Source: Parachlamydiales bacterium (GTDB lineage: Bacteria; Chlamydiota; Chlamydiia; Chlamydiales; JAJFMK01). Taken from it: a stretch of 64,000 nt of DNA. The stretch is from the NCBI GenBank assembly GCA_963704365.1, contig OY969899.1, positions 88,121 through 152,120 on the forward strand, given 5' to 3'. The notes below the pieces were generated by a model. It worked only from the letters and a program-made list of their open reading frames with translations. It was not told where the DNA came from and made no database searches. The position numbers and the translations under genes are program-made. Positions 29,103-41,926 of the stretch are shown here, piece by piece; the stretch's first letter is position 1, and each line of letters starts with the position of its first letter.

Positions 29103-31169
29103 ATGACTAGCAACAATTATAATACGCAGAACTTAGGAAGTAATATTACAACAACTAATACTCAAGGAGTGCCACTGGCAGTGGATCAAGCGGGGTACCT
29201 TGCTCTCCAAGTAGGCGTTGCTGACAATCTATATCCCACAGCTGCCACAAGTACAGTTGGATCTACGCTCCAAGGCTTAATAGATGTTTTCGGTATAAGT
29301 AATGCAAATACAGTTCAAGCGACTGTTAACGCAGCGGGACTTACAGAATCAATCCCTATTAACTTAATCGCTGCTTCGCAGGGCCAAGCCAGCGTATTTG
29401 TTGGATATAATTATAATAATAATATAAATATCGGCACCGACCTTATATGGAAGGGCAGTGACGAAACGGTATATTCTGCTCAGTTGGGTGGTAATTTCGT
29501 TTCAGTGACACAGCTTCAGAATGTGTATAACACTTATTCAGCGCAACTTCAAGCTGGGGATGGTAATTCCAATTCTTTTTGGCAAAGTAACACAGCGCTT
29601 CAGCAGGTATATAATTACTACAATCTCCTTTATCAAGATGCTAATAATCTCCCTCTAGGATCAACAAATGTAAATCCACCTGCTAATCTAATCGATTTTC
29701 TGAACTCGGTGCAGAATGCCACCTATTGGACTCCACAAGCTGGAATTACACTCAACCCTGTATTATTGAATGGTACTCCGAATATTTACCCTTGGTCTTC
29801 TTTAACTACATTTCACCTAGAGTTTGGGGGATTCAGTCCTGGTGCCGTAGCAGGACAACTCGATCTTTATAACAATATTCTTAGTCCCGATATTAGCAGT
29901 GGTCTAGGGACTTTCACTTCAGAGCAACAAAACGCAATTGTCATACCACCCTCTGCTCAGTCGATTTACAGCTCGCTAGACCAGTCATTTTTTTCCACAC
30001 TTGGAACCAGTTCTTCTAAACTCACAACAATTCCAACGACACCTGATCAATTTCTTCAAGAATATTTTAATTATTTTACAACACCTAATCCCTCAACTTC
30101 TTCAACTTATCAACTCACAGGGACTGCTTTGCCTGTTGTATTATCGAATGGTGGGGTTAATACATATATTGGTACAACAAATGTTCTCAGTTCCACAAGC
30201 CCTACTGCTGTTGCAGCCATTGGTTCTGCCTACTTACCTCAAACCGCTGCTACTGGTGCACCAAATGCTTTAGAAACTTCAATTGAAACAGCCTTCACAA
30301 ACGATTTTCAAACAGCTTTTGATCAGGCTTTTGTAAGCTCAGGGGCTTCTAGTAATCCAGTTTTAGCTGCTGAGGGAGAGACGAATTTATTTAATAGCAC
30401 CTTTGCTGCCTACATGAATGCCGTTTCAACAGGCGCTATTAAAGTTACAAGCATCCAAGACATGGTAAACCAGTGGAGTTTATTTGTTGGTCCATCAGTC
30501 ACTCTTGGGTCTTCTGCTATAATAAGTTATCAGCAGATCTATGATACTTTTTTCCCTGGTGGTACGGACAGCAACTTTCTCAACCTTCTCAATGCTTTTA
30601 TCTCTCAATTTACACAAAGTTCAGGCGGAGTTTTTAATTCAAGTTTAATGGCTGACCAATGGTATGCAACTGTTCAAAACAGTTATCTGTTAGCCAATAA
30701 TTTGACAGTTAATACTTCACAGCCTCTTTTACAGGCTAATTTCAGTGAGGTAAAGGTTATATTCGAGCTTTATAGCCTTCTTATCAATGTCTTAGGGGAT
30801 ATTCAAAAATTAACAGCTGCACAAGCACAATATGATAACGTTCTTGTAAAGTTAGAAAGTGCCTATACAACTGAGATTGCGGGTATTCCAGATGACTTGA
30901 TTGGATCTAACATTCCAGGGGGGGTAAATATTTCAACCGGTTTGACTTCAACACAATTACAAGTGCAGTCCTCATATGAAAGCCAGATTTCTAATGCGAC
31001 GCAAAAATGGATTTCTAATATCACCTCTTTCAATACAGAAGTCAGTAACCAAGAGAAAAACCAAACAACGACTATTAGCCAATCCAATGAGGCTTCAAAC
31101 CAACAATCTAACTTGATCAACTCTATACTCCAAGAGCTTCAATCGCTCCTTCAATCCATCTGGAGATAG
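29103..31169 (+). CDS. Cysteine-free N/Q/S/T/A-rich protein 4 (688 aa)
   Basis: See the previous feature. Its last ~445 bp plus terminator are duplicated in inverted orientation at 36395-36868. Confidence 0.7.
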   Translation: MTSNNYNTQNLGSNITTTNTQGVPLAVDQAGYLALQVGVADNLYPTAATSTVGSTLQGLIDVFGISNANTVQATVNAAGLTESIPINLIAASQGQASVFVGYNYNNNINIGTDLIWKGSDETVYSAQLGGNFVSVTQLQNVYNTYSAQLQAGDGNSNSFWQSNTALQQVYNYYNLLYQDANNLPLGSTNVNPPANLIDFLNSVQNATYWTPQAGITLNPVLLNGTPNIYPWSSLTTFHLEFGGFSPGAVAGQLDLYNNILSPDISSGLGTFTSEQQNAIVIPPSAQSIYSSLDQSFFSTLGTSSSKLTTIPTTPDQFLQEYFNYFTTPNPSTSSTYQLTGTALPVVLSNGGVNTYIGTTNVLSSTSPTAVAAIGSAYLPQTAATGAPNALETSIETAFTNDFQTAFDQAFVSSGASSNPVLAAEGETNLFNSTFAAYMNAVSTGAIKVTSIQDMVNQWSLFVGPSVTLGSSAIISYQQIYDTFFPGGTDSNFLNLLNAFISQFTQSSGGVFNSSLMADQWYATVQNSYLLANNLTVNTSQPLLQANFSEVKVIFELYSLLINVLGDIQKLTAAQAQYDNVLVKLESAYTTEIAGIPDDLIGSNIPGGVNISTGLTSTQLQVQSSYESQISNATQKWISNITSFNTEVSNQEKNQTTTISQSNEASNQQSNLINSILQELQSLLQSIWR

Positions 31170-31180
31170 GGTAAGTCTAG

Positions 31181-31222
31181 GAAGCCCTTCCTTACGCTAA
31201 CGCGAGTGAGGGGCTTTCTTTT
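31181..31222 (+). terminator. Imperfect GC-rich hairpin plus T-run after the N/Q/S/T-rich cassette
   Basis: gaagccc...acgc-taa-cgcg...gggctttc is followed by tttttg. The same structure is present in the inverted copy at 36395-36436. Confidence 0.5.
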
Positions 31223-40388: not shown

Positions 40389-40924
40389 GAAGTACCTCTC
40401 TCACTCAAATCCATTTAATCAACCATTGTTTAAATCAATATGAAGATGATATGAATGCCGGATGTGCAGAATTCATCTCGAATTCGCGCTAATAGCTATG
40501 GCATAGAACTTAACCAAAGACATAAAATCTCCTAACCTCTAGGTGTTTAACATCTATTTAAAAAAATAATTAAAACTATAACTACATTGATAACATTTTT
40601 AATTACTGTTTTTTAATATAATATTTAAACAATGGGATTACAGACCAAAGAGAGAGGAGAAAATGATGAGCCACATCCCACCATCGTCGACCCCAGTTTC
40701 GCCAGAATTGACAAGATTTTTAAACAATCCGGCCAGTTACCTTCAGGAGTCAACCCCACCTTCTACTTCTCTAGAGACGCGAGTTGGACAATTAATTAAT
40801 GAATGCAGAAATTAAAAAAATCAAGTCGAGTTCCCTTACAGCTTTTTAAATCAGATCCAACAGCTTTCTTTAGATCAACAAAAACATCTATTTGAATAGG
40901 CTCGGGCCCTTTCACTATTTTTGC

Positions 40925-41926
40925 TTAAATTGCTTCGTCTAACTTTCTGAGGATGAATAGAAGCTCTTCTAGCTCACTGTTGGTGATTGTTTCCTCATCT
41001 GGATCCGCTAAAAATTCGACTACATCTAACTCCTCAGTGGAAATCGGTGTTGAAAAACCTTTAACAAATTCTTTCTGAAGTTGATCTACTAGTTGACTCC
41101 GTTCTTTTAAAGTGGCTTCAATCTCTTTTTGGCCAAAGTTTCTTTCTTGCAATGAGGGAATTAGATCGATCACTTTTATGATCTCACTTAATTCGACGAC
41201 CCATTTCCCTTGCTGATCAATTTTCTCTTTTATCGTTTCTTTTAATTTCACCCTTTCGGTTCCAAAAGTAGTTTTCAGATCCTCAATGTCTTTCTGTATT
41301 TCAATAAAAAGATCTTTGCTTTTTGAATCAATGCTGTGCAGTTGAGTTACAAAAAAGTTTGGATTTTCCGGGATTTTTAGAGCTTCTATCTGTTTACTTC
41401 TTGCATCTAGAAAAAGGATGATCTTTGGAAGGTCAAAACTTTGGGTCTGCAGAGATGGCATTTGCCTTAAGGTATCGTTGTCGGCAAGTTCACATATCTC
41501 GTCGATCGTTTGCCTCATCTGTTCTATCAAATAGATTTGATCCCACAAGCCTTCTTCCGTATACCCTTTAGCTAGAAGAGCGGAGTGAAATTGCTGCAGT
41601 TTTTTGATGGCTTGATCCAATTGGCTTGAAGTGAAGATAAAATGGAATTTTTCGACCACTTTAACGATCGAATCGACAAGCTTCTGACACTCTTTTGGGT
41701 TTTCTTTCTGGGCATTCTCAAGAGACTTGTGCAGTTGACTTAACCTTTTCGCACTTTTTCCCTCGTTTGATGCCACCATGCTCAAGGCTTTTGCCACTGC
41801 CCACTTTGTCTTCTCTGAGAGATGGCTAAATTTAGCCGGCGACATCACCTGAGAGGCTACCCCTAGCAGCTCTTGTTTGAGGGTGAAAAATGGTCCCTCG
41901 GGCTCTTTAGAAAAATGAATGTTCAT
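40925..41926 (-). CDS. Hypothetical coiled-coil protein downstream of an LcrH-type chaperone; candidate chaperoned T3S substrate
   Basis: A 333-aa helical, K/E-rich protein with no strongly hydrophobic segment. It has the same orientation as the chaperone gene at 42128..42658. Confidence 0.6.
   Translation of the reverse strand: MNIHFSKEPEGPFFTLKQELLGVASQVMSPAKFSHLSEKTKWAVAKALSMVASNEGKSAKRLSQLHKSLENAQKENPKECQKLVDSIVKVVEKFHFIFTSSQLDQAIKKLQQFHSALLAKGYTEEGLWDQIYLIEQMRQTIDEICELADNDTLRQMPSLQTQSFDLPKIILFLDARSKQIEALKIPENPNFFVTQLHSIDSKSKDLFIEIQKDIEDLKTTFGTERVKLKETIKEKIDQQGKWVVELSEIIKVIDLIPSLQERNFGQKEIEATLKERSQLVDQLQKEFVKGFSTPISTEELDVVEFLADPDEETITNSELEELLFILRKLDEAI

Follow-up and report, generated by a model that had tools for sequence, protein, structure and literature searches.

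How did broken copies of the 3′ ends of two ordinary genes come to lie back to back, and inverted, between their intact parents? The question is posed by a locus in a 64,000-nucleotide stretch of the genome of an uncultured Parachlamydiales bacterium (assembly GCA_963704365.1, contig OY969899.1, positions 88,121 to 152,120; this whole stretch is called the window below, and all coordinates refer to it). The parents are gene A (29103–31169, plus strand, 688 amino acids), the third member of a trio of paralogues (442, 648 and 688 amino acids) that lies downstream of cdsQ-pkn5, and gene B (40925–41926, minus strand), which encodes an orphan protein of 333 amino acids. The arrangement is real DNA and not an assembly error, and it is probably a scar, now fixed, that a single complex rearrangement with several breaks left in a rapidly evolving island of type III secretion effectors. 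From its present layout we infer an origin in a single event, an order for the steps of that event, and some recombination between the repeats since then.

Anatomy of the inverted repeats

A repeat search over 28–44 kb of the window returned four inverted pairs, and pairwise alignments then placed the limits of homology at 30724, 31222, 36395, 36868/36862, 37095, 40896 and 41129. In the search, 36862–37095 pairs with 40896–41129 (234 nt, 97%), and 30724–31222 pairs with 36395–36868 by way of three collinear pieces (97–98%). The four arms so defined alternate with two unique segments in the order a, S1, a′, b′, S2, b, and the intact gene ends lie 4–5 kb from the back-to-back broken copies. Arm a (30724–31222, plus strand) comprises the last 446 bp of A together with its terminator hairpin and T-run (31174–31222), and a′ (36395–36868, minus strand) is its inverted, decaying copy. 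Arm b (40896–41129, minus strand) contains the last 67 codons and the stop codon of B plus 29 bp downstream, and b′ (36862–37095, plus strand) is an inverted copy of this 3′ end. Segment S1 (31223–36394, 5172 bp) carries an SH2-domain gene, a pseudogene and an Inc-like gene (35173/35233–36168, plus strand); S2 (37096–40895, 3800 bp) carries a gene for a 1098-amino acid protein and the 507 bp upstream of that gene. A first-pass annotation, made from the sequence alone, had reported the two inverted copies; the search and the alignments confirm their positions to the base, and the contents it gave for S1 and S2 (including, in S2, a paralogue belonging to a family of giant genes) stand as well.

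The two broken copies meet at a joint, called J3 here, whose sequence is found in both parents: CTCTTTT occurs exactly at the joint in A (30724–30730) and in B (41123–41129), in direct orientation, and the 7 bp that the two copies share there read aaaagag (36862–36868). An overlap of 7 bp would be expected in only about 6e-5 of blunt joins. The alignments thus agree with the original description of two gene 3′-end fragments fused head to head at a 7-bp microhomology. At the other four boundaries (31222|31223, 36394|36395, 37095|37096 and 40895|40896) they show 0 bp of shared sequence.

The same layout is found in other assemblies. A contig of 2,617,266 bp in ENA is identical (100%) to the window over the 21 kb compared, a′b′ included, and identical A, B, SH2 and 1098-amino acid proteins are present on each of three contigs longer than 1 Mb (up to 2,635,134 bp). 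Among the short-read contigs from Logan, L007 (five samples) and L012 correspond to 37032–40959, cross both b′|S2 and S2|b, and carry the b′- and b-specific single-nucleotide polymorphisms (SNPs). Contig L015 (short-read, five samples) matches 31947–36437 at 100% and crosses S1|a′ with an a′-specific base, and L004, from a third sample, crosses a|S1. Joints J1, J2, J4 and J5 (a|S1, S1|a′, b′|S2 and S2|b) have all been seen again in this way, J2, J4 and J5 with arm-specific SNPs that have short-read support from at least 6 runs. Joint J3 is supported by long contigs only; the short-read contigs end 43–64 nt inside the arms.

Arms a and a′ differ at 12 places: a 24-bp deletion, a homopolymer that is G7 in a and G6 (a frameshift) in a′, and 10 substitutions, which give an SNP divergence of 2.1%. 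The 24-bp gap of a′ sits between GATTTCTAAT direct repeats and removes eight codons (SNATQKWI) that are kept in orthologues, and a nonsense change (CAA>TAA) affects codon 667. When the differences were polarised with the loci L013 and L002 of two relatives as outgroups, the derived state was found in a′ at eight of the 12 sites (G6, the 24-bp deletion and CAA>TAA among them) and in a at three, the remaining site being ambiguous. The three a-derived sites comprise one synonymous change, one Ser/Ala exchange and one change in the terminator stem. The part of A affected in a′ is otherwise well kept: its C-terminal ∼250 amino acids, ending in ...LQSLLQSIWR, are highly conserved among orthologues, and the terminator hairpin has a folding energy of −29.1 kcal/mol (z = −4.1). 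No open reading frame (ORF) of at least 60 amino acids lies wholly inside a′b′, and the frames of A and B are not kept open there. Arm a′ is a dead gene fragment; the decay already described for it, in the form of the 24-bp deletion and the G7/G6 difference, is upheld, with the nonsense codon as an addition. A chimeric ORF across a′b′ was rejected, since the joint is crossed by no ORF and the A and B frames are closed. An RNA gene in the arms was rejected too: no family reaches its Rfam gathering score in 30–43 kb, where the sole match is a sub-threshold group I intron inside the 1098-amino acid gene.

The second pair of arms shows a different pattern of change. Arms b and b′ differ at 6 sites (2.6% divergence), with a protein change in b′ of 3 amino acids only; four of the differences lie within 34 nt of the S2 side, two lie within 17 nt of the a′/b′ joint, and the core between them is identical over 183 bp. 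An identical run that long had P = 0.0007 in 200,000 permutations, which suggests gene conversion; the core reflects either conversion or error-prone synthesis near the joints. Searches for homologues of B found only B itself, both among 5.8 billion proteins (word-index search) and among 1.84 billion (full HMMER search). The 1098-amino acid gene (37092–40388, minus strand) takes its TAG stop codon (37092–37094) from within b′, as had been proposed. Its protein likewise retrieved only itself in the word-index search and has two 26%-identical paralogues at 50–6962 of the window.

Old and new joints

Which of these joints are older than the rearrangement can be judged from L013, in which the orthologue of A (55% identical) has kept its terminator hairpin and is followed by sequence unlike that of L002 and unlike the flank of a in the window. 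Against the sequence that follows the hairpin in L013, the first 10 nt beyond the arm match at 8 of 10 positions beside a′ (read in the orientation of A) and at 2 of 10 beside a. The core of the 8/10 match directly after a′ is TTCGGTCCT (minus strand), and the fraction of 10-mers in the window that reach 8/10 or better is 5e-4. Slightly farther from a′, TTTAGAGGATGGTGAA (minus strand) matches the L013 flank at 15 of 16 positions. The shared motif, TTTAGAG(A/G)ATGGTGAA, is collinear and on the same strand in the a′ and L013 flanks, and occurs nowhere else in the window; in L013 it appears to include a ribosome-binding site and the beginning of the gene that follows (MVKFLV...). In the window, the stretch of 33 nt next to a′ (36362–36394, minus strand) is thus a remnant of the sequence that lay downstream of A in the ancestor.

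Since the flank of a′ matches L013 and that of a does not, it is at S1|a′ that the 3′-end sequence of A still has its ancestral neighbour, and the new joint is a|S1 (31222|31223). It follows that S1 is flipped relative to its ancestral orientation. The flipped segment is the best evidence, if indirect, of a past inversion across a and a′, which may have taken place in the founding event or later. The earlier description of a′ as a copy beside S1 holds in so far as a′ is an inverted copy of a; the ancestral adjacency of S1 and a′ suggests that it was not simply dropped in. Synteny with relatives, from which the ancestral order was expected to emerge, likewise gave part of the answer: the L013 flank indicates the ancestral orientation of S1, but L002 and L003 do not have the island and the path of formation is not uniquely reconstructed. 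GC skew in the window follows gene and island composition, and gives no date for the flip.

Formation of the structure

The specific path that we tentatively favour, route (i), is a single multi-break event in which [a + old S1] and [old S2 + b] were flipped in place. In the ancestor, the sequence that now forms the right end of S1 would have come after A and its terminator, read on the opposite strand. Two adjoining blocks, one consisting of the 3′ end of A with S1 and the other of S2 with the 3′ end of B, would then each have been re-joined in reverse, and the outer arms a and b would have stayed at their original places by way of staggered breaks with fill-in or by replicative copying, so that genes A and B both remained intact. 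The flipped inner ends, a′ and b′, would have been sealed together at the 7-bp microhomology, the other two new joints being blunt. Afterwards a′ underwent neutral decay (frameshift, slippage deletion and nonsense codon), and the arms, with their identical runs of 94–183 bp, have probably exchanged sequence on occasion by homologous recombination. On this path, the position of the 1098-amino acid gene's stop codon inside b sequence is what two genes meeting tail to tail would naturally give. The two pairs are alike in divergence (2.1% for a/a′ and 2.6% for b/b′) and share a joint, which fits one event and argues against two.

Several points weigh against this account. The flank evidence amounts to ∼26 nucleotides that match in a single relative; the analysis found no relative with the island, and B and the 1098-amino acid gene are without homologues outside this lineage. 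The path of formation is not uniquely reconstructible, and insertion of a patch followed by a RecA-mediated flip of S1 is equally consistent with the layout. Microhomology at a single one of the three new joints gives little reason to prefer a model of template switching during replication alone. With 6 differences in 51 nt, the edges of b/b′ have diverged further than a/a′ has, which could reflect either a difference in age between the two arm pairs or error-prone synthesis close to the joints. Finally, the G7/G6 difference could be a homopolymer sequencing error if the assembly was made from nanopore reads.

The alternative that survives best, route (ii), is a possible but less likely path. 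Here a "b then a" joint would have formed at CTCTTTT, a 0.7-kb piece carrying it would have been captured in reverse between S1 and S2, and RecA would later have flipped S1. Its attraction is that a′b′ is the exact reverse complement of the joint that tandem duplication or circularisation of 30724–41129 would give, CTCTTTT being in direct orientation in both parents (at 30724 and 41123); it also accounts for the ancestral A flank beside a′, and identity runs of 94–183 bp in the arms are long enough for RecA. It supposes, however, that a short chimeric fragment was captured through two blunt joints, which would be unusual, and that a flip came later, and that flip would have had to spare A from the defects of a′; moreover, there is no direct trace of a tandem duplication, and S1 and S2 share no similarity. 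Both routes involve three new joints, and route (i) has no extra step. For this last reason among others we favour the in-place flipping of the two blocks. Extension of the 1098-amino acid ORF over the hypothetical ancestral S2|S1 joint would add 6 codons, a result that does not discriminate.

A quite different reading is that the locus is an active, recombination-driven switch in which S1 and/or S2 invert at a useful frequency, so that A is toggled between intact and truncated forms and the 1098-amino acid gene is coupled to or uncoupled from the chaperone-B operon. This we regard as improbable, both as to the inversion and as to its effects. The flipped state of S1 and the homogenised core of b/b′ would suit it, as would contig L004, which has an arm at the A locus with a′-type sequence. 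Contig L004 spans 7.7 kb at 99.4% identity; both flanks of its arm are a-type, and the arm itself shows nine a′-type states, six of them a′-derived (the 24-bp deletion and TAA included), with 7 of the 11 mismatches of the contig falling within the 499-bp arm. This could be a′-to-a gene conversion, truncating the most conserved part of A, or a mixed consensus. But L004 is noisy, with 13 indels in its 7.7 kb, and its a- and a′-type states alternate, a pattern to be expected if reads of both copies were merged into one consensus; given this alternation and this error rate, an artefact is at least as likely as conversion. Also compatible with a switch is L016 (Logan, SRR34865000), which corresponds to 35072–36394, so that its last base is also the last base of S1. 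In five other samples the counterpart of this contig continues into a′ for 43 nt; either a branch in the assembly graph, as structural heterogeneity would produce, or low coverage could explain why L016 ends where it does.

Other features speak against a switch. No recombinase domain was found in the ORFs tested between 29 and 44 kb (all five of at least 150 amino acids and four shorter ones, against Pfam and NCBIfam), and those tested between 31 and 42 kb gave no transposase match either. Because each arm already includes a stop codon, inversion would offer no useful alternative C-termini, and the alternative arm of A is broken. Of the three long contigs, the one whose orientation was read directly, at the DNA level, is the same as the window; the other two share the neighbouring genes. 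That S1 or S2 still inverts or converts by general homologous recombination in natural populations, as a recombinase-free, accidental form of phase variation, is accordingly doubtful in our judgement. The flipped S1, the b/b′ core and the L004 mosaic indicate indirectly that the arms have probably recombined at some time since the rearrangement. The structure has no programmed function; its consequences are latent flipping of S1 and S2 and the risk that defects of a′ are copied into A.

Still more improbable are separate inverted duplications of the A end and of the B end that came to lie side by side by chance. The greater divergence of the b/b′ edges than of a/a′ could mean different ages, but overall divergence is alike (2.1% and 2.6%), and the copies abut with a 7-bp overlap and nothing in between, so that two rare events would have had to strike the same base pair, which is very unlikely. 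Least probable of all is an assembly artefact (a fold-back chimera or a collapsed repeat), the outcome that the first-pass annotation had named as fatal to its description: the confinement of J3 to long contigs and the error-prone assembly seen in L004 could be cited for it, yet the copies differ by ∼2% and by indels, four of the five joints are independently supported (three with arm-specific SNPs), and the contigs of 2,617,266 and 2,635,134 bp both encode the same proteins.

Three further mechanisms were rejected on the layout itself. Snap-back priming at the terminator hairpin of A does not fit, as a′ has the hairpin in full, T-run included; after a tandem duplication and an inversion S1 and S2 should resemble each other, and no similarity was found between them; and integration of an element carrying a gene 3′ end, in the manner of tRNA-site integration, gives direct and not inverted repeats.

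Comparison with known systems and the setting of the island

Inverted duplications at inversion breakpoints have been explained by a staggered-break model, with examples from Drosophila, and their classical signature is a-p′...a′-p, in which a single inversion leaves both breakpoints duplicated (Ranz et al. 2007, PMC1885836). The present locus resembles this in that inverted copies of ordinary, non-mobile sequence bracket a segment (a/a′ around S1 and b′/b around S2), that the gene whose 3′ end forms a is chromosomal and conserved, and that the inner copy a′ keeps its ancestral neighbour (the 8/10- and 15/16-nt matches, which are short and come from one outgroup). The outgroups have a single copy of the A 3′ end, in 22 kb of L002 and in 3 kb of L013; b is without an outgroup because B is an orphan. 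The layout differs, being a...a′ b′...b with each segment duplicated on its outer side only; neither b′ nor a copy of S2 adjoins a, as the reciprocal a-p′...a′-p pattern would have it. The inner copies here are joined at a microhomology, and the host is a bacterium. Breakpoint inverted duplication is nonetheless the closest pattern, with three of its four features present in full or in part, and the structure is a variant layout of this known scar.

The other comparisons are looser. Tandem inversion duplications (TIDs) of Salmonella, remodelled by deletions, are reportedly the subject of work by Kugelberg, Reams and Roth. They share with the window an inverted copy between direct ones, joints at short microhomologies and strand switching, but a TID with deletions gives only a...b′ a′...b; here a′ precedes b′, no sequence occurs three times, and S1 and S2 are both single-copy; a TID origin was rejected on this order. 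Microhomology-mediated break-induced replication, or fork stalling and template switching (MMBIR/FoSTeS), is said to have been set out by Hastings and colleagues in 2009 and is documented mainly in eukaryotes and in E. coli amplification systems. Its several joints, templated inverted pieces drawn from sites ∼10 kb apart and the 7-bp microhomology at one joint find parallels here, as does the clustering of b′ differences near joints, but at the other joints the shared sequence is 0 bp. Gene 3′ ends are exchanged by programmed invertible segments such as the G segment of phage Mu, the C segment of P1 and the R64 shufflon, which also have inverted repeats within gene 3′ parts that bracket a multi-kb segment. 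No invertase was found here, the arms are 234–499 bp of coding sequence and not short crossover sites, they hold a stop codon (and in a also the terminator), and one alternative arm is a pseudogene. Pseudogene-templated gene conversion, as in silent-cassette systems, would be similar if L004 is real, in that a silent partial copy donates to an expressed gene; here there is a single defective donor, the product of A would be truncated, and the evidence is one noisy contig. A composite transposon, insertion sequence (IS) or REP-RAYT (repetitive extragenic palindrome and its associated tyrosine transposase) origin was rejected, as the arms are gene 3′ ends, orthologous in island-less relatives, and S1 and S2 have no transposase. 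The structure is not a member of any programmed inversion system, nor is it a new genetic device.

The rearranged segments belong to a chlamydial type III secretion cluster, in which the window encodes CdsD (with family-specific domains), the CdsN ATPase, CdsQ and Pkn5. After pkn5 come a 164-amino acid gene, an 846-amino acid gene and then the Q/N/S/T-rich paralogues of 442, 648 and 688 amino acids, the last of which is A. The trio (25793–31169) matches no Pfam or NCBIfam family, and its proteins may be secreted or filament-type components of type III secretion. In the distant relative L011, a single locus from a scan of Joint Genome Institute (JGI) metagenomes, the order (5457–10861) is 442-like, A-like, 648-like; this locus ends 1.3 kb beyond the trio and is uninformative on the island. 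In L002/L003, where Pkn5 is 84% and A 49% identical, the orthologue of A is followed by 209 bp, the orthologue of 42837–44255, and then a tetratricopeptide-repeat (TPR) chaperone and a 923-amino acid gene. As L002/L003 are without any of the intervening sequence, the region from 31.2 to 42.75 kb is a lineage-specific island (31223–42750, ∼11.6 kb) made up of S1, a′b′, S2, B and a chaperone gene. This last gene (42128–42658, minus strand; SycD/LcrH type, TIGR02552, 120.7 bits) lies upstream of B at the right end of the island. Three lineages have been compared at the site downstream of A, and they have three different contents there; the position behaves as a hotspot, variable in every lineage seen. 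Scans of GTDB genomes with an alignment of A and its orthologues and with an alignment of Pkn5 returned no relative, and so no island-bearing one.

Within S1, the SH2-domain gene (31411–34284, plus strand) encodes 957 amino acids with a hydrophobic N-terminus and an SH2 match above cut-off (PF00017, 27.6 bits), as well as a weak ChaN/Tiki-like match (PF04187) below cut-off. SH2 domains are unusual in bacteria. At 31787–32002 this gene contains three tandem 72-bp units (100%, 100% and 97%) that encode a proline-rich 24-amino acid repeat, and short-read contigs break at these units (L015 begins at 31947 and L004 ends at 32214). The pseudogene (about 34500–35040, minus strand) has ∼210 codons and a single in-frame stop; it is recent, and no homologue was found in the window or in loci L002, L011 and L013.

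Elsewhere in the window, an IS200-like Y1 transposase ORF (18881–19333; PF01797, E = 7e-28), the sole transposase present, is flanked by 231-nt inverted arms (18640–18870 and 19346–19576) that are 96–99% complementary. The whole element (18640–19576) is REP-associated (RAYT-type) in look and lies between a 291-amino acid gene and cdsQ, inside the secretion cluster; pieces of its arms recur in L002. Palindromic, REP-like intergenic repeats of ∼60–100 nt, 75–86% alike, are found at 8424–8731, 50709–50941 and 61677–61756, and possibly (by eye) at 34303–34340, as local inverted pairs and as distant copies. A 2516-amino acid RHS/YD-repeat protein (50904–58454, minus strand; DUF6531, RHS_repeat, TEN_YD-shell) has a 1080-amino acid RHS gene at the counterpart position in L002. 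The tRNA-Pro(agg) that ARAGORN places at 10613–10694 (plus strand) lies inside a minus-strand ORF (10397–11419) and is probably a false positive, and two genuine-looking tRNA-Gly genes lie within 63053–63222.

Chlamydial genomes are usually described as highly syntenic. The locus studied here, downstream of a conserved secretion-associated gene, is a readable record of change, in which old joints can be told from new ones and the spare copies have decayed or been homogenised. Annotators should also take care here, since a′ and b′ are fragments of genes, the 1098-amino acid gene ends in a repeat, and assemblies can mix the arms. Ongoing inversion or conversion, if true, would make the scar more interesting, for A would then alternate between an intact form and one truncated at its C-terminus, with a′ as a defective donor, and the link of the 1098-amino acid gene to the chaperone-B operon would be made or broken. 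As it stands, the locus offers no new mechanism or system; it is a worked example of effector-island remodelling in environmental chlamydiae.

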